DNA of 64,000 bases from Candidatus Woesearchaeota archaeon (GCA_016187495.1 JACPJP010000012.1:17031-81030); one strand, 5' to 3'. Positions 10,167 through 28,685 are shown, numbered from the stretch's first letter. Numbers and translations are program-made. Notes: generated by a model not told the origin, from the sequence alone.

Positions 10167-11669
10167 ATGCCAAATGACTATAAAATAGACAAGGAAGCAA
10201 TAAAAACCCAGCATGCTAAGGGCAAGTTAACGGCAAGGGAAAGATTGGAAGTTCTATTGGATAAAGGCTCTTTTACAGAGGTTAATGCAGACATGGAGCT
10301 TACAAGCACTAATTTTGACCTGCAGCAAAAGAAAGTGCCTGGAGATGGCGTCATAACAGGCTACGGAAGGATAAATGGAAAGTCAGTATGCGTATTTGCC
10401 CAGGATTTTATCTTCATGGGCGGCTCTATGGGAGAATCTCATAATAAAAAAATAGTTTCTATACAGGAACATGCATTAAAAATTGGCTGTCCAATAGTAG
10501 GATTATTTGATAGCGGTGGAGCAAGAATCCAGGAAGGCGTTAATTCCCTTGATTCTGGGGGCAGAATATTCAAGAACAACACTTTGGCCTCTGGAGTTAT
10601 ACCTCAAATTTCTGTTATTTTGGGGCCATGTGCTGGTATTGCAGTGTACAGCCCAGCTTTAACTGATTTTATTTTCATGACAAAAAAAATCAGCTATATG
10701 TTCATTACAGGTCCTGACGTGATTAAGACAATAACTGGCGAAAATATTGATTTTGAGGGATTAGGCGGGGCAATGCCCCATAATGAAAAGAGTGGTGTTG
10801 CAAGCTTCATAGAGGAAAGTGAAAAATCATGCTTTGAAACGCTAAAATTATTGCTAAGCTATTTGCCGCAAAACAATATGGAAAATCCTCCTTATATAAA
10901 CACAAATGACCGCCCAAACAGGTTAAACAACCTGAAAAATATTGTCCCTAAGGAAGACAAGAAAACCTATGATGTAAAAAATGTGATAGAGGAAATAGCC
11001 GATAAAAACACCTTCCTTGAAATCCAGCCATTATACGCGCAAAATGCAGTCATAGGATTAGCAAGATTAAATAGCTATACGGTCGGCATAGTGGCAAACC
11101 AGCCAAAAATACTTGCTGGCTGCCTCGACATAAACAGCTCTGATAAGATTGCAAAATTTGTAAGGTTTTGTGATGCCTTCAACATACCAATAATAAACCT
11201 TGTTGATGTTACAGGCTATCTTCCTGGCGTAAACCAAGAGCATAACGGAATAATAAGGCACGGGGCAAAAATACTTTATGCTTACTCTGAAGCTACTGTC
11301 CCAAAAATAAGCCTGGTAATGAGAAAAGCTTACGGTGGAGCTTACATTGCTTTAGCTTCCAAAGAAATGGGCTATGACAAAGTGATTGCATGGCCTTCTT
11401 CAGAGATAGCAGTCATGGGCGCTGAGCAAGCAGTCAATATAATACATAGGAAAGAGCTTGCAGGTAAAAATTCTGAAAGAATAAAGCAGCAAAAAATAAA
11501 TGAATACAAAGAGAAATTCATGAATCCCTATGAGGCAGCGAAACACGGAAAAGTGGATATAATAACAGAGCCGAAAAACACAAGAAAGGCCTTAATCAGT
11601 TGTTTAGAGATGCTATTAAGCAAAAGGGAGAGAAGGCCTGCAAAAAAGCATGGCAATATTCCATTATAA
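10167..11669 (+). CDS. acyl-CoA carboxylase carboxyltransferase subunit (PccB/methylmalonyl-CoA carboxyltransferase family)
   Basis: 500 aa; tandem crotonase-like CT domains with conserved motifs (GGARIQEG..., AYGGAY); adjacent to BCCP and biotin genes. Confidence 0.9.
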   Translation: MPNDYKIDKEAIKTQHAKGKLTARERLEVLLDKGSFTEVNADMELTSTNFDLQQKKVPGDGVITGYGRINGKSVCVFAQDFIFMGGSMGESHNKKIVSIQEHALKIGCPIVGLFDSGGARIQEGVNSLDSGGRIFKNNTLASGVIPQISVILGPCAGIAVYSPALTDFIFMTKKISYMFITGPDVIKTITGENIDFEGLGGAMPHNEKSGVASFIEESEKSCFETLKLLLSYLPQNNMENPPYINTNDRPNRLNNLKNIVPKEDKKTYDVKNVIEEIADKNTFLEIQPLYAQNAVIGLARLNSYTVGIVANQPKILAGCLDINSSDKIAKFVRFCDAFNIPIINLVDVTGYLPGVNQEHNGIIRHGAKILYAYSEATVPKISLVMRKAYGGAYIALASKEMGYDKVIAWPSSEIAVMGAEQAVNIIHRKELAGKNSERIKQQKINEYKEKFMNPYEAAKHGKVDIITEPKNTRKALISCLEMLLSKRERRPAKKHGNIPL

Positions 11670-11697
11670 GTGATAGGCATTACAAGTTTAATGAATA

Positions 11698-11768
11698 GAT
11701 AGGCGAGGCAAAAATTCGATGGCAGAAGAATTTTTGCCGAGCAGTAAAATTTGTCGCGAAGCGACGGA
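11698..11768 (+). ncRNA. conserved structured intergenic element, copy A (candidate small RNA/regulatory repeat)
   Basis: Hairpin ggcaaaaattc/gaatttttgcc (11707-11738), then 'gagcagtaaaatt' and a GCGAAGC mini-hairpin; ~85% identical over ~58 nt to the element at 25681-25738. Confidence 0.4.
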
Positions 11769-11801
11769 ATAAAAATCAACTTACTCAAAATTTTATCACA
11801 A

Positions 11802-12191
11802 ATGGAAGATATAACCATTAAAGTCGATGGCAAAGAATATGATGTCAAGGTTGAGGAAACAGAAGACGGAAAAATACTTGTTCATTGCAACGGGGATGTT
11901 TATGAGGTAGAAAGCCCTTATGACAAGAAGGCTGCTATCTTCAGCCGAGCAAAAAAAGAGGAGATAGAGCAAAAAGGAAAAGCTGCTGTTACCGCTCCAT
12001 TGCCGGGAATAATATATGACATAAAAGTTAAAAAGAGGGATAAGGTAAAAGAAGGCCAGTCTTTAATCAAGCTCATAGCAATGAAGATGGAAAATGACAT
12101 TGTTGCTCCTCGCTCAGGTACAGTAAAGGAGATAAAGGCAAAAAAGAATGCTCAGGTAAACAAGGATGATATTTTGATTGTCATAGAATAA
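11802..12191 (+). CDS. biotin carboxyl carrier protein (biotin/lipoyl attachment domain)
   Basis: 'AMKMEN' biotinylation motif near the C-terminus. The six-frame ORF starts at 11751 with TTG, inside the conserved intergenic element. ATG at 11802 (MEDITIKVDG...) is the more plausible start. Confidence 0.8.
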   Translation: MEDITIKVDGKEYDVKVEETEDGKILVHCNGDVYEVESPYDKKAAIFSRAKKEEIEQKGKAAVTAPLPGIIYDIKVKKRDKVKEGQSLIKLIAMKMENDIVAPRSGTVKEIKAKKNAQVNKDDILIVIE

Positions 12192-12221
12192 ATGTAGCAA
12201 ATATAGAACAAAGGTGGCAAC

Positions 12222-12851
12222 ATGGCAAAAAAAACAACAAGAAAATCCGGGAAAAAAACCATCAAATCAGATAAAAAATCTGAAAGTATTGCTGAAACAA
12301 AAAACATTGAGAAAGCAAATAACTTAAAGCCTTTGGTTTTTGCAGCGTTGTTTGCAGCTTTGACTGCAGCAGTCTCTCCATTAAAGATACCTTTAGGATT
12401 TACACCAGTCCCAATTACATTGCAAACCTTAGTCGTGTTAATGTCAGGCGCAATGCTTGGCCCTATTTATGGAGCTTTAGCCATGATTTTATATGTAGTT
12501 GTCGGAACTTTAGGGCTTCCAGTATTTGCCGGCGGTGGTTCAGGAATAGGAGCAGTTCTAGGCCCAACCGGAGGTTATCTAATAAGCTATTTCATAGCGG
12601 CATTTGCTATAGGAAAAACGTTGCAATTGAGAAAGCGGCCAAAATACCTGGATTATGTAGTCGCAATGATAATAGGCACAATAATAATCTATGTGCTGGG
12701 AGCTGGCTGGGCATTAGTAGTTGTTCCGAACCTTACATTCTTAACAGTTATGGTAGGATGGGTATTACCTTTCATAATAGGCGACACGATAAAGCTGTTG
12801 ATAGCTGCTTATATAGCAAAAACGGCAAATATCAAAAGATACCTGAAATGA
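12222..12851 (+). CDS. bioY: biotin transporter BioY (ECF S component) with Lys-rich N-terminal extension
   Basis: 209 aa; multi-TM with the BioY-type fold, preceded by a ~35-aa K-rich leader. Confidence 0.82.
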   Translation: MAKKTTRKSGKKTIKSDKKSESIAETKNIEKANNLKPLVFAALFAALTAAVSPLKIPLGFTPVPITLQTLVVLMSGAMLGPIYGALAMILYVVVGTLGLPVFAGGGSGIGAVLGPTGGYLISYFIAAFAIGKTLQLRKRPKYLDYVVAMIIGTIIIYVLGAGWALVVVPNLTFLTVMVGWVLPFIIGDTIKLLIAAYIAKTANIKRYLK

Positions 12852-13606
12852 CTGCAAAAGAACTTTTTTTATTTGACATTTTTTCTTATTCTTGCATGAA
12901 TTGCTTGAGATCATTAGATTATATTAAAAAATTAGACAATAAATATAAGAGATATGGGTTAAAAACAGTTTTAATACATCCTTCTGAATGGGATTTTGAG
13001 AAAGACAGCAATAATATAATCAGAGCAGCAAAAAAATATAGGATAAGGATGCCTATACTCCTCGATAAAAACAAAAAAATTATAAAAAACCTGAAAATAA
13101 ATTTCTGGCCGACTCAGATATTAATTAAGAACAAAAAAACTGTATACAAGCACATTGGAGAAGGGGATTACAAAGCATTGGAAAATAGTATAATCGAGGC
13201 ATTAAAAATCAAAACCAAGAAGATATTTAATAAAGAGCCGAAATACACAAAATTCCCAACAGTCTATGCAGGCAAGAGAAAAAAGGATAAGCTCTCAGAA
13301 CTAAAAGGCAAATTAAAGTGTGGTATCATATACAAAAAAGGGGCTTGGAAGCAGAATAACGAGTCCTTAATTGGAAAAGGCTTGTTGGTAATAAAAACGA
13401 AAGGGAAGGTAGTAAGTATGGTGGCAAGCTCAATTAAGAAAAAACCAGTAAAAATCAATATAATGTTAAATAATAAAACCAGTAAGAATATGATTATTAA
13501 TGAGCCTCAGTTATATGATATCATGAGATTAAAAACCGATAAAACAAACATACTAAATTTAAAAACAAAAAGTGCCATATCGATCTACTCTTTTGCATTC
13601 CAATGA
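12848..13606 (+). CDS. thioredoxin-fold (redoxin/TlpA-like) protein with Lys-rich C-terminal tail
   Basis: 'SYSCMNC' CxxC motif in the thioredoxin-fold position. Likely start is ATG at 12848; the long ORF from 12758 would overlap bioY. Translationally coupled to ecfA (ATGA at 13603). Confidence 0.55.
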   Translation: MTAKELFLFDIFSYSCMNCLRSLDYIKKLDNKYKRYGLKTVLIHPSEWDFEKDSNNIIRAAKKYRIRMPILLDKNKKIIKNLKINFWPTQILIKNKKTVYKHIGEGDYKALENSIIEALKIKTKKIFNKEPKYTKFPTVYAGKRKKDKLSELKGKLKCGIIYKKGAWKQNNESLIGKGLLVIKTKGKVVSMVASSIKKKPVKINIMLNNKTSKNMIINEPQLYDIMRLKTDKTNILNLKTKSAISIYSFAFQ

Positions 13607-14301
13607 TACAAATAAAAAACCTTGATTTTAAGTACGAAGATGAGCTTATTCTCAAAAATATAAATCTAGAGCTAAAAGATGGCTGCTATACTGCTATAAT
13701 TGGGGCAAACGGCTCAGGGAAAACAACGCTTGCGAAGCACCTTAATGCATTGCTTATGCCAACAAAAGGGTCTGTAACCATTGATGAGATTGATACGAAA
13801 AAGGACCAGATTAGCGTAAGAAAAAAAGTTGGTTTTGTGTTCCAGAATCCTGAAGATCAGTTGGTATATTCGATTGTCGAGGAGGACATTGCATTTGGGC
13901 TGGAAAATCTTGGGATGAGAACAGAAGAAATGAAGACTAAGGTCAATAGTACAATTAAAGGGTTAGACATCGAATACCTTGCAAAGAAGAATGTAAACAT
14001 ACTCTCTGCTGGGCAGAAACAGCTAACTGCTTTGGCTGGAATCCTTGCAATGAGCCCGAAATACATCGTCTTTGACGAACCAACCACGTTATTGGACAAC
14101 AAAAACAAGAAAAATATAATGGATGTAGTAAACACGTTAAACAAGGAAAATAAAATTGGAATTATATTGGTGACTAATCTCCTAAATGATATAAAATATG
14201 CCAAAAATGTCATTGTAATCTGCAATGGAAGAATAATATTCAACGATAAAAAATCAAAATTGAATAACAAAATACTGAAAAAGGCTGGTTTGGATGCTTA
14301 A
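13603..14301 (+). CDS. ecfA: ECF transporter ATPase component (EcfA-like ABC ATPase)
   Basis: Walker A 'GANGSGKTT', ABC signature 'LSAGQKQ', Walker B 'IVFDEPT'; a single ATPase gene only. Confidence 0.85.
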   Translation: MIQIKNLDFKYEDELILKNINLELKDGCYTAIIGANGSGKTTLAKHLNALLMPTKGSVTIDEIDTKKDQISVRKKVGFVFQNPEDQLVYSIVEEDIAFGLENLGMRTEEMKTKVNSTIKGLDIEYLAKKNVNILSAGQKQLTALAGILAMSPKYIVFDEPTTLLDNKNKKNIMDVVNTLNKENKIGIILVTNLLNDIKYAKNVIVICNGRIIFNDKKSKLNNKILKKAGLDA

Positions 14302-15019
14302 GAAGCTGACTTTTGGGCAATATGCGCACAAAGATTCCATAACGCACAAATTAGACCCAAGAATAAAGATTCTTGCCGTTATTTTGCTGAGCGCAACGGC
14401 ATTTTTACTGGAAACTTACTATAAGTTTGCTATATTCTCATTATTTGTTTTTTTATTAATAATGCTGTCAAAAATAAATTTCTCTTCGTTGATAAGGAAC
14501 TTAAGGCCTTTCTTTTTTATTTTTGCATTTATACTAATGATGTATATTTTGTTCTCTAGAAATGAGCTTGACAAAGGCATACAGGCGATATGGAAATTTG
14601 TTTTGTTAATAATAATAGCCTCGATACTTACATTTACAACTACAATAACTAATTTAGTAACAGGAATAGAAAAGTTATCAGCTCCATTAAAATTAATAAA
14701 AATTAATTCTAGGACAATTGCACTGTTAATAGCTTTGACAATAAGGTTCGTCCCAGCATTATTCCTGTATGCCGAGAGAATAAAAGATGCAAGGCTTGCA
14801 AGATTAGGAAGCTTAAAGAGTCCAAAGCACGTTAAATTATTATTTTTGCCATTGCTTGACAGGATATTCAAAAGCGCATCAACACTAAGCGATGCAATGC
14901 TTGCAAGGAACTACACAGAAAAAAGAATTTCTTATTTCAGTGCCATTGGATTAAAAAATTATGACTATATTTCCTTTACTGTACTGTTGGCGTTTATATT
15001 CTTAGTTCTATTGATGTAG
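14294..15019 (+). CDS. ecfT: ECF transporter transmembrane component (EcfT/CbiQ family)
   Basis: 241 aa, ~5 TM helices; overlaps the ecfA stop; position after BioY and EcfA. Confidence 0.8.
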   Translation: MLKKLTFGQYAHKDSITHKLDPRIKILAVILLSATAFLLETYYKFAIFSLFVFLLIMLSKINFSSLIRNLRPFFFIFAFILMMYILFSRNELDKGIQAIWKFVLLIIIASILTFTTTITNLVTGIEKLSAPLKLIKINSRTIALLIALTIRFVPALFLYAERIKDARLARLGSLKSPKHVKLLFLPLLDRIFKSASTLSDAMLARNYTEKRISYFSAIGLKNYDYISFTVLLAFIFLVLLM

Positions 15020-15066
15020 AAATGAGTTTTTGTATTGGATACCTGTTATATTCTTCCTTAATGAGT

Positions 15067-15300
15067 TTACTTACTCCCTGTTGGAGTCTTCTGCCCGAAC
15101 AAAATTCCAGCTAAAACATTCAAAGCCCATGCCTGCCATACATTTATGCTATGAATACTGCCAAACACAAAGTTCCATAAAATCTTTACTGGAAATGCCA
15201 ATATCAAGCCGACAATGCCGCTTATTAATACAACCAAGGCTATAGTATAACCCATCTCTAGCATCCTTTTCAAAAAAGGCACATCATCTAAAAATCCCAT
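15067..15300 (-). CDS. small predicted two-TM membrane protein (77 aa)
   Basis: Two clear hydrophobic helices; it is the more plausible of two mutually exclusive ORFs in this 300-bp gap. Confidence 0.3.
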   Translation of the reverse strand: MGFLDDVPFLKRMLEMGYTIALVVLISGIVGLILAFPVKILWNFVFGSIHSINVWQAWALNVLAGILFGQKTPTGSK

Positions 15301-15321
15301 GTTAATCAGGAAGAATATAGC

Positions 15322-16032
15322 ATGTTGTTTTTAAAGATTTTGCATTTCAATAACTTTATATATAAAATACTAATGAATTGTATTATGAAACAGAAACTCA
15401 ATTACAGTGCCATAAAGAAGCGCTTTAGGGTTGCTATTTTTGGTTCTGCGCGCATAAAAAGAAATGATGCGAGATACAAGCTCATCTACACACTAGCAAA
15501 GATGCTGGCTAAGGAAGGCATCGATATAGTTACTGGCGGGGGTCCTGGACTGATGGATGCTGCCTCTCGCGGTCATCATGCAGGAAGGCACAAAAAAAAT
15601 CATGCTTACACTTTAGGCCTTACAATACACCTCCCAAAAGAGCAAAAGGAAAGCTACCATCTTGACTTGAAAAAAGATTTCCACAAGTTCTCAAACAGGC
15701 TGGATAATTTTATCCACCTCTCAAATGTTGTTATTGTAGCACCTGGCGGCGTAGGCACCACTTTGGAGCTTATGTATGTCTGGCAGCTTGTGCAGGTAAA
15801 GCATTCCTGCGAAATACCGATAATACTATTCGGGGATGTGTGGGGAGGTTTTGTAAAGTGGATAAAAGGCGGACCCTTAAAAAACGAATTTTTGGAGGAA
15901 GATGACCTTGAGCTGTTATACCATGCAAGAACCTGCACTCAGGCAATGAAGATAATAAATCTTGCATACGAAGAATACAAAAAAGGCAGAAAGAATATAT
16001 GTCTAAACATTGATAAATACAAAGTCAAATGA
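15322..16032 (+). CDS. LOG-family Rossmann-fold protein (cytokinin riboside 5'-monophosphate phosphoribohydrolase / nucleotide N-glycosidase family)
   Basis: 'GGGPGLMDAASRG' and 'PGGVGTTLEL' LOG signature motifs. The true start may be the internal ATG at 15373 or 15385. Confidence 0.75.
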   Translation: MLFLKILHFNNFIYKILMNCIMKQKLNYSAIKKRFRVAIFGSARIKRNDARYKLIYTLAKMLAKEGIDIVTGGGPGLMDAASRGHHAGRHKKNHAYTLGLTIHLPKEQKESYHLDLKKDFHKFSNRLDNFIHLSNVVIVAPGGVGTTLELMYVWQLVQVKHSCEIPIILFGDVWGGFVKWIKGGPLKNEFLEEDDLELLYHARTCTQAMKIINLAYEEYKKGRKNICLNIDKYKVK

Positions 16033-16048
16033 AAAATAATTACAATCC

Positions 16049-16771
16049 CTAAATAACAAATATATCTGCTTCCACTATCTTCTTAATGCTCCCGTCATTT
16101 AATTTCAATATAAGATTGCATTCTTCGTCAACATCAACAGCTTTTCCAGTATAATTCCCGCTAAGCGTCTTTGCTTTTGTCATCTTCCCCAAGGTATGCG
16201 AATATTCTTTCCATATATCAACTATTTTTTTATAATTTTTTTTATTATAATAATCATATAATCTATTGAATTCGTTTATTATTGTTTTTGCTATTTTTTC
16301 TATGTCGTAGTTACTATTGGACTCTATCATTATTGACGTTGAGTTTCTCATAATGGACCTTGGAAATTTCTTCTGATTTACATTTAGCCCTATTCCAACT
16401 AGTGCGTAATTTACATTTGTGCATACATTTTCAGTCAATATTCCACATACTTTTTTATGATTAATTAAGATGTCATTCGGCCATTTTACTTTTGCGTCCA
16501 AACCAGCAATCTTGCGAATAGCTTTTGCAACTGACACTGCAGCAATAAAAGTAAGATACTTTGCTTTATCCAAACCCTTTTCCTTCAAGATTATAGTCAT
16601 ATACAATCCTCCTGGGCTAGAACTCCATTTACGCCCAAATCTTCCCCTACCTTTTTCTTGTTTCTTAGCAACTACAACAAGGTTTGCTTTTCGTTCTTTT
16701 GCAAATTCCCTAGCCTTGTCATTAGTAGAGCTAAGAACATCAAAATTATAAAAAGAAAAGTCAGGTTTCAT
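16049..16771 (-). CDS. birA: biotin--[acetyl-CoA-carboxylase] ligase BirA (no N-terminal HTH)
   Basis: 240 aa; 'GRGRFGRKWSSSPGG' biotin-binding loop motif typical of BirA/BPL catalytic domains. Confidence 0.85.
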   Translation of the reverse strand: MKPDFSFYNFDVLSSTNDKAREFAKERKANLVVVAKKQEKGRGRFGRKWSSSPGGLYMTIILKEKGLDKAKYLTFIAAVSVAKAIRKIAGLDAKVKWPNDILINHKKVCGILTENVCTNVNYALVGIGLNVNQKKFPRSIMRNSTSIMIESNSNYDIEKIAKTIINEFNRLYDYYNKKNYKKIVDIWKEYSHTLGKMTKAKTLSGNYTGKAVDVDEECNLILKLNDGSIKKIVEADIFVI

Positions 16772-18656
16772 TCTCCATTAATTCCTGTCTTCCGGACAGG
16801 ACCCAAGGGTTTGCTTTATTGTTGCCGTTCTTCTTTTCCATGTATTTAGCAACTGCCGTGCTCACTATAATGACTTTCTTTTCGTTCGTAAGCTCTTGTT
16901 TTTTATGCTCGTAATATTTCTTTACCTCATCCAGTATGTTATTCTTTTCTATAAAGTTAGTAGTGACTCTTCCCCTGTAGAAGTTCTTGTTGTGCAAAAC
17001 AGCTAAATGAAAAGGTATTGTGGTTTTTACTCCGCCAATAATGTATTCGTGCAGTGCTCTCATCATCCTCACTATAGCTTCCTGCCTGTTGCTGCCATGG
17101 CATATTAGTAGTGATAATAATGAGTCATAATCTGGCAAGACTTTATAGCCCTGGTGGCATATGCTGTTTATTCTTATTCCAGGCCCTCCTGGCGGCAAGT
17201 AGCTAGTTATTGTTCCTATGGAAGGGGCAAAGTTATTACTTGGGTCTTCTGCATTTATCCTGCATTCAATTGCCCATCCATCCACTTTGATGTCTTCTTG
17301 CTTAAACGCAAGCTTTGCCCCTGATGCCAGATTTATCTGCTCCTTAACCAGGTCAACACCTGTAACCATCTCAGTAACTCCATGCTCTACCTGTATTCTC
17401 GTATTCATTTCAATGAAATAGAAATTCTTGCTCTTGTCCAAAAGAAATTCGACAGTTCCAGCGCCCTCATATTTTGCAGCCGATACAGCTTTTACCGCAG
17501 CTTCCCCCATCTTTTCCCTCAACTCTTCGTTTAAAGCGGGGCTTGGGCTTTCCTCGACAAGCTTCTGGTGCTTCCTCTGTATGCTGCAGTCTCTTTCCCC
17601 AAGATGGACAACATTTTTGTATTGATCCGCTAATATTTGAAACTCTATATGCCTGGGCTCCTCAACATATTTCTCCATAAATAGCCTTTTATCATTAAAA
17701 GACAGAAATGCTTCTGCCTGTGCGCCTTCATATGCCTTTTCCAGTTCATCAATATCCCTTACGATCCTCATTCCCTTACCCCCACCGCCTGCAGCAGCTT
17801 TCAATATAACCGGAAATCCTATCTTTCTCGCAAACTTAAGTGCCTCTTTTCTGTTCTTCAGGGGCTTTGCAGTTCCCTCTAGTATAGGGACACCTGCCTT
17901 TTTTACAGTCTTTTTTGCTTTTATCTTGTCCCCTAAAAGCCCTATTGTCATGGAAGACGGCCCTATGAACTTGATTTTATTTTTCTCGCATAGCTTTGCA
18001 AATTTCGGGTTTTCCGCAAGAAATCCGTAACCGGGATGTATTCCATCAGCTTTTATCTTTTTTGCAATATTAATGATTTTCTTGATATCAAGGTAGCTTG
18101 CGCTAGGACCTATACAATAAGCCTTGTTGGCAAACTTAACTGCAAGCGTATCCTTATCCTGCCTTGAATAAACCAGGGCAGTTTCTATGCCTAACTCACG
18201 GCATGCTCTAATTACCCTTAAAGCTATTTCCCCCCTATTGGCTATCAAAACCTTGTTAAGCTTCTTTTCTTTTGATAGGACAGTATATTCTTTCTCATTA
18301 AAACTGCCTAACCCTTTTGCGAGCATGCCAATAAAAGATTGTGAGGATCTTGCCTTCACTATTTTCCTTAGCTCAGTTTCATGAATGCTCGGTATTTTCT
18401 TCATAAGATTGAAGGTTATCACATCTCCAAGCTTTGCTAAATTGTCTTTCTTAAAACCTCTTTTTTCAATCTGTATAACATTGCTCTTAATCAACCTGTC
18501 TATTTCCCCATAAACCAGCGGAGCTGCTTTTTTCATCTCGTTAAATGCCTTCTTTAAGGCTTTGTATGAATATTCCGCTGGAATTAAGCCTTTGTTTAGT
18601 ACCGAGACTATGCCATTCTTAATCCTTTTTGAGATGCTGTTTTTTCTCTTTCCCAT
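16761..18656 (-). CDS. biotin carboxylase (AccC/PccA-type ATP-grasp) with ~125-aa N-terminal extension of unknown function
   Basis: The core from 'KVLIANRGEIALRVIRACRELGIE' onward is canonical biotin carboxylase (ATP-grasp, BC C-terminal domain). The upstream 125 aa (Lys-rich, no match) may be real or due to a late internal start at Met 18326. Confidence 0.85.
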   Translation of the reverse strand: MGKRKNSISKRIKNGIVSVLNKGLIPAEYSYKALKKAFNEMKKAAPLVYGEIDRLIKSNVIQIEKRGFKKDNLAKLGDVITFNLMKKIPSIHETELRKIVKARSSQSFIGMLAKGLGSFNEKEYTVLSKEKKLNKVLIANRGEIALRVIRACRELGIETALVYSRQDKDTLAVKFANKAYCIGPSASYLDIKKIINIAKKIKADGIHPGYGFLAENPKFAKLCEKNKIKFIGPSSMTIGLLGDKIKAKKTVKKAGVPILEGTAKPLKNRKEALKFARKIGFPVILKAAAGGGGKGMRIVRDIDELEKAYEGAQAEAFLSFNDKRLFMEKYVEEPRHIEFQILADQYKNVVHLGERDCSIQRKHQKLVEESPSPALNEELREKMGEAAVKAVSAAKYEGAGTVEFLLDKSKNFYFIEMNTRIQVEHGVTEMVTGVDLVKEQINLASGAKLAFKQEDIKVDGWAIECRINAEDPSNNFAPSIGTITSYLPPGGPGIRINSICHQGYKVLPDYDSLLSLLICHGSNRQEAIVRMMRALHEYIIGGVKTTIPFHLAVLHNKNFYRGRVTTNFIEKNNILDEVKKYYEHKKQELTNEKKVIIVSTAVAKYMEKKNGNNKANPWVLSGRQELMENET

Positions 18657-20180: not shown

Positions 20181-21238
20181 ATGTACATCAAAGGCGCTGG
20201 AATGACGAAGTTCGGGATACGTGCAGAAACAACACATGAGCTGTGTTATGAGGCTATTATGGAAGCTCTGGAAGATGCAGATATGCCCTTATCAGAAATA
20301 GATGAAATAATAATCTCAAAAGGGGGTTCAAGAAATGATGGGGAGAGGCAAAAGCTCTTTCCGGGTATGTTGAGCAGCATGCTCCAGGACCAGGATATAC
20401 CTATCATAAGGGTCATGGCTGCTTGCAGCGGGGGAGGAGCGGCAATATGGGATGCGGTGAATTCCAAAGATGGAAATATCCTTGTAGTTGGTGTTGATAA
20501 GCTCTCAACTGAGCCAACCAGCCTCATGACGGACGATTTGATGATGGCTTCAGAAAGGATTCACGAGCAGACGGAAGGCCTAAACTTTCCGGCCCAGAAC
20601 GCGCTCATTGCGCAGCAATATATGCTCAAGTATGGGGTATCAACTGATGACCTCGCATTAGTCGCACTAAAAAACCATGAGAATGCCTTCCTTAACCCCA
20701 AAGCAAGATTTTATGGAAAGAAAGTTACATTGGATATGATACCGCCATATTAAGCAATGAAAAAAGCGACATAGAGATAATAGGCTCCTCATTATACACT
20801 GACAGGCTCTCAGTATTTGAATCAAAAGATATGACGTCATGGGCAGCCACAAGACTGGCAGCTCAGTCCGCTTACCAGCAAGCTGGAATAACCCAGAAAG
20901 ATATTGATTTTGTTGAGCTGCATGATGCTTTTACGTCCGTTGAATTGATGGCTTACGAGGATCTGGGTTTCGCTGAAAGAGGGGAAGGCAAGAAGCTGAT
21001 AAAGAAAGGCATAACAAAAATGAATGGAAAACTCCCGGTAAACGCCTCAGGAGGATTAAAAGCAAAGGGGCATCCCATCAGTGCTACAGGGGTGAGCCAG
21101 ATATATGAGATAGTGAGGCAAATGAGAAAGCAAGCTGGCAAAAGGCAACTTGATAATATTGGAATAGGCTTAGCCCACAATGTAGGGGGAGTAGGCAGCA
21201 CTGTTACGGTACATATAATAAAGCATGTTGGTGGTTAA
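20181..21238 (+). pseudogene. thiolase (acetyl-CoA C-acetyltransferase family) paralog 1, interrupted by an out-of-frame ~67-nt deletion
   Basis: The N-terminal part (20181-20753, active-site 'AACSGGG') ends 'LDMIPPY*'. The C-terminal part continues in another frame (…TAILSNEKSDIEIIG…, ORF 20831-21238). About 22 codons present in paralog 2 (RKSPVVASPLRLFDCSIPCNGA) are missing. The break lies exactly at the end of the 141-bp tract shared with paralog 2. Confidence 0.6.
20601..20741 (+). repeat. 141-bp perfect direct repeat, copy 1 (inside thiolase paralog 1)
   Basis: Identical to 23144-23284 by direct comparison, whereas flanking coding sequence of the two paralogs diverges at synonymous sites. 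Confidence 0.85.
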
Positions 21239-21240
21239 TA

Positions 21241-22692
21241 ATGATAATAAGATGGGTTTGTGAAAAAGACAACAAAAAATGGATGTATCCCATCCAAAAA
21301 TGCATTTACTGCAAAGGACCCGTAAAGAAACAGGTAAGCAGAAAAGCAAGAGTTATAGGTATAACGAAAGTAAACATACCTTCCCCAATGCATCCGATTA
21401 TACCCTACAATGTTATTCTGCTTGAGGACGAGCATGGCAACAAGATGCCAAAAAAGACTATGAAGGACTATAAGATAGGGGATGAATACAAAATTGAAAA
21501 GGCGAAATCTGACAGTGGCGTTATTGCAACAAAAATAAAGTATGACTTGTACGAGGCTTTAAAATCATCCTTGGAGTTACTAAACTCTTTTGATGTAATG
21601 GAAAATGATAAAGTGCTGATAAAGCCGAGCATAATAGAGCCAGCTTACAGCTATTCAGCAGTAAATACTAACCCAAAAATACTTGATGCCCTAATAACTT
21701 TCCTGAAAGAAAAGAATGTAAATGATATAATTGTAGCTGAGCAGGCAATGGTTGGCAATGATACCTTAGACTCTGCAAAAAAATCTGGAATGTTAGAAGT
21801 ATGTGAAAAGCATAATGTGGGTTTCGTTGACCTTAAAAAGGCAGAGTATGCAGAAAAAGAAGCTGAAGGGTTTAAATTTGAGGTTGCCAAATATTTCTTC
21901 GAAAGAAAAGTTATAAATATTCCTGTTATGAAAACCAACTCCCAGATTGGTATTTCTGGAGCAGTTGAAAATATGGTAAGATGCGCGCATAAGGATACGC
22001 AAAAAAATATGTTTAAGCACGATATAGAAAAGACCTTGCCCAAGCTGATTAAAACCCTGCCTCATTTCATAACCATAGGGGATGCTACAATAGGCATGCA
22101 TGGCCAAGGCCCGACCTCTCTGGGAGAGCCTGCATTTTTGAATATGCTTTTTGCGAGCAAGGATCCTGTTGCTTTAGATGCAGTTTTCGTGGAAATGGGA
22201 ATGATGGAGATGCCTCAATACCTAAAAGAATGCGGTTCTTTAGGATTAGGGAACTGCGACTCAAAAACAATCGAAGTAGTAGGAGACGAATTGGAGGCTA
22301 TAAAGTTCTCTCTCAAGCCTGCTAAAAAAAATGAAAGCGCGCACCCAAAAATAAAGCTTATCGATGGTAAAGCAGATCCTTATATTTTTAATTCGGCAAT
22401 AAAATCAACAGCTAAGCTTATTGGATTATCAGGACAGGAGATTAACCTTGCCATAGGCTCGCAACTGACAAAAGATATGATAGCAGATAAAAACCGCTTG
22501 GTTGCATATGGAAATGATGCGATTGAAAAAATAAAATCGTTAGGAATAACTCCAATTGCAGAAATACCTGAAGGTATAGACGATCTTGAAAAGATTATAT
22601 TGCTAAAAAGTATCCTGGAGAACCCTGAAAAGGAAGGCATTACTATTGCAGATAAAATAAAATCAAAATTTTTAAGTTGGGTGCAAAAATAA
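21241..22692 (+). CDS. fusion protein: N-terminal DUF35-like Zn-ribbon/OB-fold domain (thiolase/HMGCS scaffold family) + large C-terminal domain of uncertain family (possibly DUF362-like)
   Basis: N-terminus 'CEKDNKKWMYPIQKCIYCKG' is a rubredoxin-like ribbon followed by an OB-like segment as in archaeal DUF35 proteins. The remaining ~380 aa are conserved-looking but unassigned. The gene sits between two thiolase paralogs. Confidence 0.65.
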   Translation: MIIRWVCEKDNKKWMYPIQKCIYCKGPVKKQVSRKARVIGITKVNIPSPMHPIIPYNVILLEDEHGNKMPKKTMKDYKIGDEYKIEKAKSDSGVIATKIKYDLYEALKSSLELLNSFDVMENDKVLIKPSIIEPAYSYSAVNTNPKILDALITFLKEKNVNDIIVAEQAMVGNDTLDSAKKSGMLEVCEKHNVGFVDLKKAEYAEKEAEGFKFEVAKYFFERKVINIPVMKTNSQIGISGAVENMVRCAHKDTQKNMFKHDIEKTLPKLIKTLPHFITIGDATIGMHGQGPTSLGEPAFLNMLFASKDPVALDAVFVEMGMMEMPQYLKECGSLGLGNCDSKTIEVVGDELEAIKFSLKPAKKNESAHPKIKLIDGKADPYIFNSAIKSTAKLIGLSGQEINLAIGSQLTKDMIADKNRLVAYGNDAIEKIKSLGITPIAEIPEGIDDLEKIILLKSILENPEKEGITIADKIKSKFLSWVQK

Positions 22693-23143
22693 AAAAATAG
22701 ATTCTAAGATGGCCATTTACATAAAAGGTGCAGGAATGACGAAATTTGATGTTGACCAGAGAAATTCTTACGAGCGCATATATGAATGTGTAAACGAGGC
22801 TCTTGATTCAGGGAATGTGAGTATGAAAGATATAGAGGCCGTTTTCGTCTCAAACTGCGAGCCTGAAACCAATGGCGAAAGGCAAAGGCATACTGGCCCA
22901 ATGATAAGCAGCATGTTCCAGAAAAAAATGCCCATAATAACAGTCCCTGCCGGATGCGGTGGTGGAGGAACAGCATTATGGAATGCTGCAGAATTCCAAA
23001 AAAAAAATAATATGAAAAACATACTTGTTATTGGGTTTGAGAAACTTGTTGCAAATTTATCAGAAAACATAACTGATGAGATGTTCATGGGCGGTGAGCG
23101 TATTTATGAGCAAGCAGAAGGTGTCATTTTTCCTGCCCAAAAT

Positions 23144-23284
23144 GCGCTCATTGCGCAGCAATATATGCTCAAGTATGGGGTATCAACTGATGACCTCGCA
23201 TTAGTCGCACTAAAAAACCATGAGAATGCCTTCCTTAACCCCAAAGCAAGATTTTATGGAAAGAAAGTTACATTGGATATGATA
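23144..23284 (+). repeat. 141-bp perfect direct repeat, copy 2 (inside thiolase paralog 2)
   Basis: Identical to 20601-20741. Confidence 0.85.
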
Positions 23285-23298
23285 ATTGGATATGATAA
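23273..23298 (+). repeat. 13-bp tandem duplication (ttggatatgataa x2) that frameshifts thiolase paralog 2
   Basis: Read directly from the sequence; the first unit is the last 13 nt of the 141-bp shared tract. Confidence 0.85.
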
Positions 23299-24127
23299 GA
23301 AAATCTCCTGTAGTTGCTTCTCCGTTAAGGCTGTTTGACTGTAGCATACCATGCAACGGCGCGGCTGCTGTTATAATAGGCAGGGGCAAAACGGAGGTTG
23401 AGCTTGCTGGCTCTGGGTTAAGCACGAGCAAGTTGGCGAGCTTTGAAAGGGAAGACATGACCTCTTGGGACTCAACAATAAATGCTGCAAAAATAGCATA
23501 CAAAGAAGCAAATATAACTCCAAATGATATAGACATAGCAGAGGTTCATGACGCATTTACCCCTGTTGAGCTTATTTCTTATGAAGATTTGGGATTCTGC
23601 AAAAAAGGCGAGGGTCCTTACCTTATCAGGCAAGGGGCAACAAAAATTAATGGCAAGCTTCCTGTAAATACCTCTGGAGGATTGAAAGCAAAGGGTCATC
23701 CTATCAGCGCTACCGGAGTAAGCCAGATATATGAGCTTTTTCTGCAGCTGACAGGAAATGCAAAAGGCAGGCAGGTGGATAATGCCAATTATGGCTTGGC
23801 GCACAATACTGGTGGCGCAGGCAGCATGACCAGCGTGCATATACTAAAGAAAGCTATGTGATGGTTAGAGTATGTCTAAAAATCGCTTCGCGGGTTAGCC
23901 CACGATAATTGGAATGATGTTCTTGTTTGACATTTTCATTGTTTGACTGACCATAAAAACCAACCTTACGATGCTCGTCCATTTTGACTTTCATTTGTTT
24001 ATTTAATCATATTTCCTTTTTCATTAAAAATTCATATGGATAAAACCCTATTATTATTAATTTTTATTGAATAAATACTATGTTGCAATTAATGCTAACC
24101 TTTGTTTTTTAGACACGCCCGTGATGG

Positions 24128-25531: not shown

Positions 25532-25628
25532 GATATATAGATGAGGTATACCATTAATAAATCTAACGCTTATTTGCAATAATTCTAGCTTCATGAATTG
25601 AAACCATTTGATTTTATTATTATGCTCC

Positions 25629-25760
25629 CGGCAATTTTACTGCTCGCTTAATAATCATAATAAAACTATTGTTATGATTAGGCGAGGCAAAATTTATTGG
25701 CAGGAAAAATTTTGCCGAGCAGTAAAATTCGGCTGAGCGTAGCGAAGCCAAATTGAAATT
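25629..25760 (+). ncRNA. conserved structured intergenic element, copy B (nested hairpins)
   Basis: Outer 14-bp stem aattttactgctcg (25633-25646) / cgagcagtaaaatt (25716-25729) encloses an inner hairpin ggcaaaattt/aaaattttgcc (25687-25715). The core 25681-25738 is ~85% identical to 11701-11752. Confidence 0.4.
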
Positions 25761-25873
25761 TAATAAAAAATCAATTTCAAAAGGCAGAATAAATTTAATT
25801 AATTTCCCCTTACTAAATAGCCCTTTAAAAAGACAAGATTTAAAAAGTTCTTGCTCATTCTTGATAGTGTAAA

Positions 25874-27645: not shown

Positions 27646-28539
27646 TCAATCAAATTTTTCTTGTGCGTCTACTATTTCTTTTTTAAATTCGGCGTTAGGA
27701 TAATCAGAAGGGTTTATCTCAAATTCAGAATCTGCTATATCCTCATCAAAATAGAATCCTTCATAAACCCTTTCTATTTTATTTTCAATTTCTATACAAT
27801 TCCCTTGTGAACTTTCACCGCCAATTTCCGCAGAAACCTCACATTGAGTCGAGTAACTTTGAGATTCTTCTTTTAAAATTGCAAAATTATCGGTATCAAA
27901 CCAATAAGTAACAACTGTTTCTCTTGGCGTTTTCCCAATAGCTGTTTGTTTCTGCTTTGCTTCCTCGCTCATCAAAATTGTGACAACCGCTTTTATTGCA
28001 TCTTTTCCATTGTAATTCACTTTGGATGTTTCAACCTTGTATTTTGTCTCGTCAGTTATTTCCATAGGAACTTTCCATTTTTCTGCGCCTTTATTTATGA
28101 AATAACCACAATAAGTTGTCATTTCTGGAGGAAGATCAACATACTCGTATACACTCATTAAATCCGGGGTTATTTGAGAGTATGCTATATATCCATTACA
28201 TATATAGAAATTTTGTGAATTTTGACCATAAGCAAGACCAAAAACCTGCTTTATTTTATCTGGCTTTTTGAACATTTCAGTATATTCTTGTTTTTGATTC
28301 ATTGTTCCGTCTTCGTAACGCAATTCGGTTATAGTATATTTCAAGGTTGAAAAGGAGTTATATCTATCTTCGATTTTTTGATTGATTTCTTTCACAGATT
28401 CTTCTGTTACCGCACATCCGCTTACAAAAATAACCAAAGTTAATGTAAGCCCTATCAAAATTATTGGATTTGACAAGAATTTCGCACCAACCCCCGAACA
28501 AAAACCGTATGTGTTTAGCAGCCTTGAGGTCGAGCCCAT
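27646..28539 (-). CDS. hypothetical lipoprotein-like secreted protein
   Basis: Signal peptide ending 'VIFVSGC' (lipobox-like). The annotated N-terminal 20 codons fall in a palindromic region. An internal TTG start (~28475) giving 'MSNPIILIGL…' is plausible. Confidence 0.5.
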   Translation of the reverse strand: MGSTSRLLNTYGFCSGVGAKFLSNPIILIGLTLTLVIFVSGCAVTEESVKEINQKIEDRYNSFSTLKYTITELRYEDGTMNQKQEYTEMFKKPDKIKQVFGLAYGQNSQNFYICNGYIAYSQITPDLMSVYEYVDLPPEMTTYCGYFINKGAEKWKVPMEITDETKYKVETSKVNYNGKDAIKAVVTILMSEEAKQKQTAIGKTPRETVVTYWFDTDNFAILKEESQSYSTQCEVSAEIGGESSQGNCIEIENKIERVYEGFYFDEDIADSEFEINPSDYPNAEFKKEIVDAQEKFD

Positions 28540-28637
28540 TTGCTAAACACATTGAAGGAGGTCAGAGGGTTGGCTCCTACGGAGCATGACCGATACTTTT
28601 AGTAAACATGTACTGGGCTCGAAGCTGCTAAACACAT
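28509..28637. promoter_or_regulatory. 129-bp imperfect palindrome with three copies of GCTAAACACAT in a divergent intergenic region
   Basis: Left arm atgtgtttagcagccttgaggtcgagccc (28509-28537) is the reverse complement of the right arm gggctcgaa--gctgctaaacacat (28615-28637) apart from a short indel. A third copy of 'gctaaacacat' lies at 28542-28552. Confidence 0.4.
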
Positions 28638-28685
28638 ACATTTTTAGTAATGCTTTTTAAATAATGGCATTTTTCCTAAGGTGGG

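Follow-up and report, generated by a model that had tools for sequence, protein, structure and literature searches.

Two copies of a non-coding hairpin element, referred to here as A (11681-11780) and B (25660-25764), were identified in a 64,000-nt stretch of DNA from Candidatus Woesearchaeota archaeon (GCA_016187495.1 JACPJP010000012.1:17031-81030; the whole stretch is called the window). Both belong to an uncatalogued, large and lineage-restricted family whose members have conserved hairpins, a fixed spacing to start codons that depends on the presence of a Shine-Dalgarno (SD) sequence, and insertion polymorphism between relatives. On balance, we lean towards interpreting A and B as members of a dispersed, modular, mobile and promoter-bearing hairpin repeat family. 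The main rival to this interpretation is that the element is transcribed, as a 5' leader or as a small RNA that has a protein partner.

Extent of the family

A repeat search of the window aligned 11711-11751 with 25689-25729 at 85% identity without gaps, confirming the second copy that a preliminary description of the window had placed at 25681-25738 with ~85% identity. When one indel is allowed, the similarity between A and B extends over ~52 nt, from TAGGCGAGGCAAAA to GCCGAGCAGTAAAATT, and includes two stretches of exact identity, of 20 and 14 nt. The plus strand of the window contains exactly two occurrences of the 16-mer GCCGAGCAGTAAAATT, with a third, weaker match on the minus strand at 25633-25648, and this match count was reached by none of 100 shuffles. 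Searching the window with the family covariance model R2 with filters off returned exactly two full copies and one partial copy. Copy A matched over its full length with 87.3 bits (model R1) and 83.1 bits (R2), and copy B scored 85.6 and 77.3 bits, respectively, with E-values of ~1e-17 to 1e-22; however, both copies were in the model-building set, so that their scores match by construction, and independent support for the family comes from the ~60 further copies found elsewhere.

An exact pattern (GAGGCAAAA-N12-22-TTTTGCCGAGCAG) gave 18 matches when one genome per GTDB species was scanned. Seventeen of these were located in seven metagenome-assembled genomes (MAGs) of Woesearchaeota type, seven of them in JACPMR01 alone, while the remaining match, in a Gottesmanbacteria MAG, is due to chance. 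Model R1, built from the 101-nt core, revealed further and much more divergent copies in the same 8-kb loci. A metagenome scan using only the conserved boxes (GGCGAG...CGAGCA...CGGATTGAAA) contributed ~45 true members among the 120 matches listed, all in contigs of 33-43% GC, whereas the other matches listed were chance occurrences in high-GC contigs. In total, the covariance models identified 77 copies with E < 1e-4 from 52 sources, with up to 11 copies in the sampled loci of a single MAG; the expectation that a covariance model would recover further copies was thus borne out. The conserved unit is ~100 nt long, including a 5' linker and a 3' box, rather than the ~60 nt originally proposed, and core lengths range from 100 to 190 nt. 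A chance or purely local duplication agrees with the presence of only two full copies in the 64-kb window, but is refuted by dozens of covarying copies in at least seven MAGs and many metagenomes, and we assign it practically no weight.

The family was found only in low-GC contigs of Woesearchaeota type (DPANN). Source names of BCCP homologues of the window include Candidatus Woesearchaeota and Nanoarchaeota, and the window encodes a RadB/Rad51-type protein. Two of the MAGs carrying the element, CAYTDO01 (loci L012, L013, L017, L020 and L026) and CAZUSQ01 (L027), are titled 'uncultured Methanosarcinales archaeon', a label that looks doubtful given the low-GC Woesearchaeota-type element and gene context. 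No match to Rfam 15 was obtained at the gathering score in the window or in 16 loci, permissive Rfam 15 scans of A, B and one long-form copy gave only chance-level matches (E ~1-10), and the CRISPR direct-repeat models of Rfam gave no meaningful score. A viral origin was considered and rejected, as five pattern matches in IMG/VR were all chance by the model, and no copy of the element was present in phage and plasmid collections. We found no published description of the element in the literature, of which our coverage was limited.

Hairpin anatomy and structural constraint

From 5' to 3', the core consists of a linker (consensus UUAUUGAAUAAAUA), the box GGCGAG, a hairpin designated P2, the box CGAGCA(G/C), UAAAUAUUG, a second hairpin designated P3, and CGGAUUGAAA, the 3' box of the family being CGGATTGAAA. 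P2 has a stem of 7-12 bp and a loop (A/G)UGGCAG(A/G)A in which UGGCAG is conserved, and across the family its base is formed by a GC/GC step together with a tandem G.A/A.G. P3 is a GC-rich stem of 4-8 bp closed by a GAA or GAAG loop. Many copies, but neither A nor B, have an additional 5' hairpin module, which occurs in two variants (ACGAGAGCG..GCUUUUGAU and ACGUCGCUUCCCA..UGGGAACCCAGCUCAGGA..GCCUGA), and in these long forms a TTTAAA-like box lies ~45 nt upstream of the module. Further modular variation includes a second P3-like hairpin in locus L148 and the clean deletion of P2 between the two CGAG boxes in some copies, including the minus-strand copy at 25609-25669 of the window. The P2 apex of at least six copies (L016:2939-3074, L022:736-856, L037:2673-2844, L138:4075-4206, L140:3187-3325 and L100:200-334) contains a nested conserved hairpin (~GGUGAGCGAGGUUCGCC..GAGCUCACCUCGC), apparently a small module in its own right that becomes inserted into the element. 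In addition, the same conserved ~60-nt stretch (TAAATATGTAGGCTATAATAAATAAAGAAACAACATTAAAGACTTAGTCTA), which has no open reading frame (ORF), follows two copies that were sampled separately (L037:2929-3000 and L079:9280-9351, minus strand).

In copy A, the P2 module (11702-11744, plus strand) comprises the GGCGAG box, an 11-bp stem in which GGCAAAAATTC (11707-11717) pairs with GAATTTTTGCC (11728-11738), a 10-nt loop (GAUGGCAGAA) and the CGAGCAG box, and the GC/GC step and tandem G.A/A.G at the base of the helix are formed by 11703-11706 with 11739-11742. The P3 mini-hairpin (11753-11765, plus strand; GTCGC-GAA-GCGAC), recognized by its fold and by covariation in the family, may be extended by two U.G pairs (11751-11752 with 11766-11767), and the 81-nt region folds with a z-score of -5.2 relative to shuffles. 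The 3' box and A/T-rich spacer follow at 11766-11801 (plus strand), where GGAATAAAAAT is a degenerate form of CGGATTGAAA.

Copy B, delimited on the plus strand by models R1 and R2, has its GGCGAG box at 25681-25686, a P2 stem of 25686-25697 with 25705-25716, the loop UGGCAGG, a CGAGCAG box ending at 25722, P3 at 25730-25749 and a 3' box (AAATTGAAAT) at 25750-25759. Relative to A, one A/T has been lost from each arm of P2, a compensated indel, and a C/G has changed to T/A. The 11-bp hairpin that the preliminary description considered preserved is therefore intact in A and maintained in B through compensation, with 10 of 11 positions paired and a single A.A mismatch. The GCGAAGC mini-hairpin of the same description exists as such only in A, since in B the sequence GCGAAGC is merely contained in a longer GGCU...AGCC stem.

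Structural constraint on the hairpins is evident across the family. P2 stem sequences are unrelated between copies (for example GCAAAAAUU, GUUUCGC, UUGUCGC, GCUUUUUUU, GUGUUCC and CUCCGAAC), yet the arms remain complementary. In the 77-sequence alignment, which was fitted to the model so that its covariation counts are biased, standard pairs occupy 91.3% of cells (72.4% when shuffled and 34-53% when slid), and 237 double-change cells were observed compared to 69 in the control. Compensatory changes across copies, which had been anticipated, affect both sides in eight of nine P2 pairs. An independent count, made from the base of the stem outward, found 459 Watson-Crick pairs among 535 stem positions, and the P3 stem also covaries, with UA, CG and GC at one pair and CG, GC and UA at the adjacent one. 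The original view of a conserved, structured, non-coding intergenic element is supported.

The two strands are not equivalent in this respect. Purine-purine mismatches (54, of which 38 are G.A and 16 A.A) far outnumber pyrimidine-pyrimidine mismatches (5), the G.A mismatches are often tandem and lie inside P2 and P3, and 53 of 67 copies fold better on the sense strand. What is constrained is thus the sense strand in single-stranded form, be it RNA or DNA, and the covariation counts fit the two equally well. Comparing G.U with A.C as an RNA test in P2 yielded 8 and 9 pairs, respectively; the two are equally rare, and this result is neutral, leaving RNA and DNA unseparated. A guide-like role for the variable P2 arms was rejected, with 8-mers of a copy's own arms matching its flanks of +/-600 nt (21 matches) no more frequently than those of other copies (16 matches). 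By-eye comparison with K-turn, C/D box, H/ACA, BHB, hammerhead and attC structures found none that fits, as the 3-nt bulge, the ACA box, the CUGA/UGAUGA pair and the complementary R boxes are all absent. Part of the element does recall CRISPR repeats that end in ...GGAUUGAAAC (e.g., type I-C), since P3 with the 3' box (GUCGC-GAA-GCGAC-GGAUUGAAA) resembles the hairpin-plus-handle 3' part of such repeats, but we treat this likeness as a lead only. Unlike CRISPR arrays, the window contains no tandem repeat-spacer array, each element having a single P3 and 3' box.

Insertion and turnover

The junction between pccB and the BCCP gene was compared in relatives found via the BCCP protein. In L150 (BCCP 81% identical to that of the window) and L153 (73%), the junction is empty, reading TAAaATG and TAAaaATG, respectively. 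In the window, the junction holds a 132-nt insert (11670-11801, plus strand), which occupies the full interval from the pccB stop codon (11667-11669) to the BCCP ATG (11802). The insert of L148/L149 (BCCP 95%) is 192 nt long and has a P2 stem and a P3 unrelated to those of copy A, the P3 resembling that of copy B, and an extra hairpin, and that of L152 (75%) is 116 nt long, with the element beginning right after the stop codon. Filled and empty sites, the former with three different variants, are thus found at the same junction. Because pccB and BCCP abut in two relatives, copy A is an insertion, and because L151 (BCCP 81%) carries a different, unrelated insert of 270 nt (L151:2231-2500), which seems to encode a small hydrophobic membrane protein, the junction is a recurrent insertion site. 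Copy A was first described as lying within a carboxylase-BCCP operon, but as the element is inserted there this operon context is secondary. Turnover is also seen at orthologous sites elsewhere, where P2 stems differ between loci with flanking proteins that are 93% identical.

In one MAG, CAYTDO01, the core (P2, P3 and ATATTGAAT) lies inside a 162-bp unit bounded by 11-bp terminal inverted repeats (TIRs; GGTTAAGTAAG/CTTACTTAACC) and flanked by three different 9-bp target-site duplications (TSDs; CTTAGAACG, CCATTAAAA and TGAATTAAG). At least three insertions of this unit, observed at five contig ends, are 99-100% identical, and the unit breaks the k141 assembly. The CAYTDO01 subfamily is a bona fide, recently active miniature inverted-repeat transposable element (MITE). 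The family as a whole is likewise short, non-coding, multi-copy and dispersed. In a MITE census, which did not characterise the individual elements, one Woesearchaea genome ranked with the most MITE-dense genomes of archaea, at 105 per Mb (PMC11602168).

The copies in the window present a different picture from those in CAYTDO01. The insert containing copy A starts with GTGATAGG and ends with TTATCAC, an imperfect match of 6-7 nt that could be due to chance, and no duplication was seen beyond one A at the TAA|ATG junction; for copy B, neither TIR nor TSD was found. Among the four possibilities originally offered for the element (attenuator, RNA-processing site, small RNA and MITE remnant), the last comes nearest, with the proviso that the window copies have no convincing TIRs or TSDs.

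Several known repeat families offer points of comparison. Archaeal MITEs, for example SM1-4 of Sulfolobus, are matched by the 162-bp subfamily of CAYTDO01, which is a textbook MITE; however, the conserved core is the internal cargo of this MITE rather than its termini, and most members of the family, including A and B, lack TIRs and TSDs. The Correia elements (CREE/NEMIS) of Neisseria are MITEs defined by TIRs of 26 bp and a TA duplication; their promoters are directed outward, and they form hairpins in transcripts. Like these, the woesearchaeal element is short, non-coding, high-copy and intergenic, lies near gene starts, has hairpins and a promoter-like end, and varies in presence between relatives. 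In contrast to Correia elements, its copies in the window have neither TIRs nor a TA duplication, the sequences are unrelated, the host is archaeal (BRE/TATA rather than sigma-70 promoters), and its stems covary extensively between copies, which is atypical of Correia copies.

BOX elements of Streptococcus pneumoniae are modular repeats (boxA-boxB(n)-boxC) and are compared here together with repeats of the ERIC/RUP type. The woesearchaeal element shares with BOX its intergenic location, its strong structure and its optional or repeated modules (the 5' module, the second P3-like hairpin of L148 and the nested P2-apex hairpin), but differs from BOX, ERIC and RUP in having no sequence similarity to them, in its fixed spacing and orientation to start codons, and in belonging to another domain of life. 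REP/BIME sequences are imperfect palindromes of ~35 nt at the 3' ends of genes, and the associated RAYT proteins are Y1 HUH transposases. The partial resemblance to REP/BIME includes the imperfect palindrome, a short conserved sequence preceding the stem (here AUAG-GCGAG), the occurrence of inverted pairs (here 11 in head-to-head orientation), a structure that is better on one strand, and purine mismatches. On the other hand, the woesearchaeal element is three to five times longer (~100-190 nt), has two or three hairpins and lies at the 5' ends of genes.

Start-codon spacing, promoter geometry and biological meaning

A co-oriented, ATG-initiated ORF starts within 200 nt of 50 of the 78 copies examined, and in 35 of the 78 it starts 20-49 nt from the end of the model. 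The downstream genes belong to ~45 unrelated, housekeeping families (most were named from their N-terminal sequence, without profile scans), including genes for a gyrase-like protein, proteasome alpha, ribosomal proteins L39e, S19e, L11, S13 and S3Ae, aIF2-gamma, Sec61-beta, RNR, GlyRS, SufB, transketolase, GuaA and FolD. This variety excludes any operon- or biotin-specific role. The context of copy A (BCCP, BioY, ECF and the biotin ligase) had prompted consideration of a biotin-regulon operator or riboswitch, which the distribution of the family refutes. More generally, a biotin-specific operator, or an attenuator between pccB and BCCP-BioY-ECF, repeated before a second biotin-related locus, is very improbable. 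Copy A does precede BCCP, BioY and ECF genes, with a biotin ligase and a biotin carboxylase nearby, and P2 is palindromic like a dimer-binding operator. However, the P2 half-sites are wholly different between copies, leaving no sequence-specific dimer site, the element is absent from this junction in relatives, and the 240-aa biotin ligase matches only the catalytic and C-terminal Pfam domains, no DNA-binding domain being detected. A scan of A and B, based on a bacterial consensus, found no sense-strand terminator consisting of a hairpin and U-run, the sole site, at P3, being on the minus strand. The attenuator or operon-specific processing site suggested at the outset is thus contradicted by the unrelated downstream genes, the empty junction, the missing terminator and a predicted transcription start downstream of the hairpins.

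The distance from the A of ATTGAA to the ATG falls into two classes, at 34-41 nt in 25 genes without an SD and at 49-54 nt in eight genes, six of which have an SD; the two classes are offset by roughly the length of a short leader. For 210 genes of the same contigs that lack the element, A/T content upstream is maximal at -33 to -24, TTTA is most frequent at -32 to -29, and GAAA shows an approximately twofold enrichment at -40 to -33, a profile that we read as the signature of B recognition element (BRE)/TATA promoters driving leaderless mRNAs. In the element, GAAA of the 3' box takes up the BRE-like position of these element-free promoters and is followed by TATA-like strings. Both copy A and the family agree with the geometry expected of an archaeal core promoter, in which a TATA-like A/T stretch is placed ~24-33 nt, and a purine-rich BRE ~33-40 nt, ahead of the start. 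In the tail of copy A, AATAAAAAT occupies positions -34 to -26 relative to the BCCP ATG, which makes it a candidate BRE/TATA of a leaderless BCCP mRNA. Judged from the spacing to start codons, transcription would start downstream of the hairpins rather than upstream of them.

Divergent genes provide a further argument. Eleven head-to-head pairs in other contigs have overlapping 5' linkers and fill nearly the whole intergenic region, leaving no room for other promoters. A similar arrangement occurs at copy B, whose partial partner (25595-25669, minus strand; model match 25609-25669, with 32 P2 positions skipped in the alignment) consists of a linker, GCGAG|CAGTAAAATTG with P2 deleted exactly between the two CGAG boxes, and a degenerate P3 (CCGGGAGC), and its A/T-rich tail leads to the ATG (25592-25594) of a minus-strand Pyr_redox_2 gene. 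The two overlapping 5' linkers form an A/T-rich palindrome at 25648-25680. A larger RNA with a three-way junction, as seen in a fold of 25625-25750, was considered and is explained by this head-to-head arrangement of two copies. The partner of B, the promoter-like 3' box and the optional 5' module had all escaped the preliminary description.

The spacing and the head-to-head pairs also bear on the possibility that the element is a structured 5' leader RNA, co-transcribed from a promoter further upstream, whose boxes and UGGCAG loop bind a global protein or RNA partner controlling the stability or translation of numerous housekeeping mRNAs. We regard this as possible, although unlikely. It would account for the strong covariation alongside conserved unpaired boxes, for the sense-strand specificity of the purine-purine mismatches and of the better folding, for the U.G pairs conserved at the base of P3 (in 60-63 of 77 copies) and the G.U pairs of the 5' module, for the TTTAAA-like box of the long forms, and for the orientation of the element, which is that of the downstream gene. 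It is less easily reconciled with a bimodal ATG spacing that tracks the SD and coincides with the BRE/TATA of element-free leaderless promoters, with overlapping linkers in head-to-head pairs that leave no space for an upstream promoter, with the 28 of 78 copies that have no downstream gene, with the dispensability of the element at the pccB-BCCP junction in relatives, and with the lack of an Rfam family.

Alternatively, the copies could be stand-alone small RNA genes of ~100-190 nt, each with its own promoter and terminator and merely located near gene starts, an explanation that we consider improbable. The constant distance between the TATA-like box and the 5' module in long forms agrees with it, as does the more frequent occurrence of a run of at least four T right after the 3' box in gene-less copies (16 of 43) than in gene-adjacent copies (3 of 35; Fisher p = 0.004). 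Taken as proof of termination, however, these T-runs were rejected, since they read TTTTTA/TTTTAA and are equally good TATA boxes, which makes the test ambiguous. Moreover, the oligo-T typical of archaeal termination is absent before the ATG in gene-adjacent copies, short forms such as A and B lack the 5' module together with its putative promoter, and the fixed start-codon spacing would be left unexplained. Genes for tRNA or other non-coding RNA were not found beside the copies without a downstream ORF.

Under the interpretation that we favor, the element would be a portable promoter cassette. Copy A would have split the ancestrally coupled pccB-BCCP pair and would supply the putative BRE/TATA for a leaderless BCCP-BioY-ECF transcript, while copy B and its truncated partner would be the two head-to-head elements of a divergent promoter region. 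Selection on the single-stranded form of the sense strand would maintain the hairpins, most likely for the propagation of the element itself; alternatively, they may serve as a 3'-end or insulator structure on transcripts reading in from upstream, as REP, BOX and Correia sequences do in bacteria. Transposition would account for the spread in at least one lineage, in which a MITE carries the core, and recombination or replacement between copies would likely do so elsewhere.

Several observations weigh against this interpretation. The promoter is deduced from geometry in A/T-rich DNA, where TATA-like strings are common, and for 28 of the 78 copies no co-oriented ORF of 50 aa or more lies within 200 nt, a number that rises to 43 of 78 within 60 nt. 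Copy B is among them, the methyltransferase ATG (25874) lying 109 nt beyond the end of the model. No transposase or non-housekeeping cluster recurs among 476 ORFs in ~360 kb of element-bearing loci, and the window copies show no convincing mobile-element ends. A pure promoter cassette leaves the strong maintenance of the hairpins unexplained, and the conserved U.G pairs of P3, the G.U pairs of the 5' module, and the strand asymmetry together with the TATA-like box ~45 nt upstream of that module would fit an RNA role.

A more specific version of the promoter-cassette interpretation, in which a self-propagating cassette is copied to the 5' ends of genes via a single-stranded intermediate, is speculative and rather doubtful. 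P2 and the subterminal P3, ~10 nt from the constant 3' end, would then act as cis-signals for an enzyme of the HUH or reverse-transcriptase type. Such a mechanism would explain why the 3' end is constant and the 5' extent variable (long, short, P2-deleted or starting at a stop codon), as well as the rapid replacement of copies at orthologous sites and the strand-specific structure.

Other features of the window were also recorded. A compact biotin locus at 11802-18656 encodes BCCP, BioY, a thioredoxin-like protein, an ECF ATPase and a CbiQ/EcfT component, and on the other strand the 240-aa biotin ligase and a 631-aa biotin carboxylase with an N-terminal extension of ~130 aa; the junction of the BCCP stop and the BioY start (12183-12220) contains 1.9 copies of a 20-nt unit. 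Two ORFs (20181-20753 and 22709-23338) that match only the N-terminal domain of a thiolase share a 217-nt direct repeat (20525-20741 and 23068-23284, 87% identity). Between these ORFs are an ORF for a thiolase C-terminal domain (20831-21238) and a DUF362 gene (21241-22692), and the region 20181-23338 looks like a duplicated, split thiolase locus. Finally, a 31-nt inverted repeat that is unrelated to the hairpin element (28498-28528 and 28618-28648, 84% complementary and 89 nt apart) is located at a divergent junction between an unannotated 297-aa ORF on the minus strand and a sulfatase gene.

The genomes of DPANN archaea are tiny and gene-dense, the organisms are uncultured or hard to culture, and to our knowledge almost nothing is known about how their genes are transcribed. 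The element would provide a sequence handle for locating promoters and transcription starts in Woesearchaeota MAGs and offers an explanation for contig breaks in Woesearchaeota assemblies. Its well-covarying hairpin motif (GGCGAG/UGGCAG/CGAGCA) is one for which a protein, enzyme or RNA partner could be sought, and it serves as a warning for annotation that such hairpins should not be taken for gene-specific riboswitches or attenuators. If the promoter-cassette interpretation is true, a single repeat family would constitute a sizeable share of promoter regions, as suggested by the seven exact-pattern copies in one MAG and by the copies ahead of ribosomal-protein, proteasome, RNR and aminoacyl-tRNA synthetase genes, and would show how DPANN operons are broken up and re-wired. 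If a single-stranded intermediate is indeed involved, the cassette would represent the first promoter-homing mobile element to be described from archaea, and may be a major shaper of transcription units in the reduced genomes of DPANN archaea.

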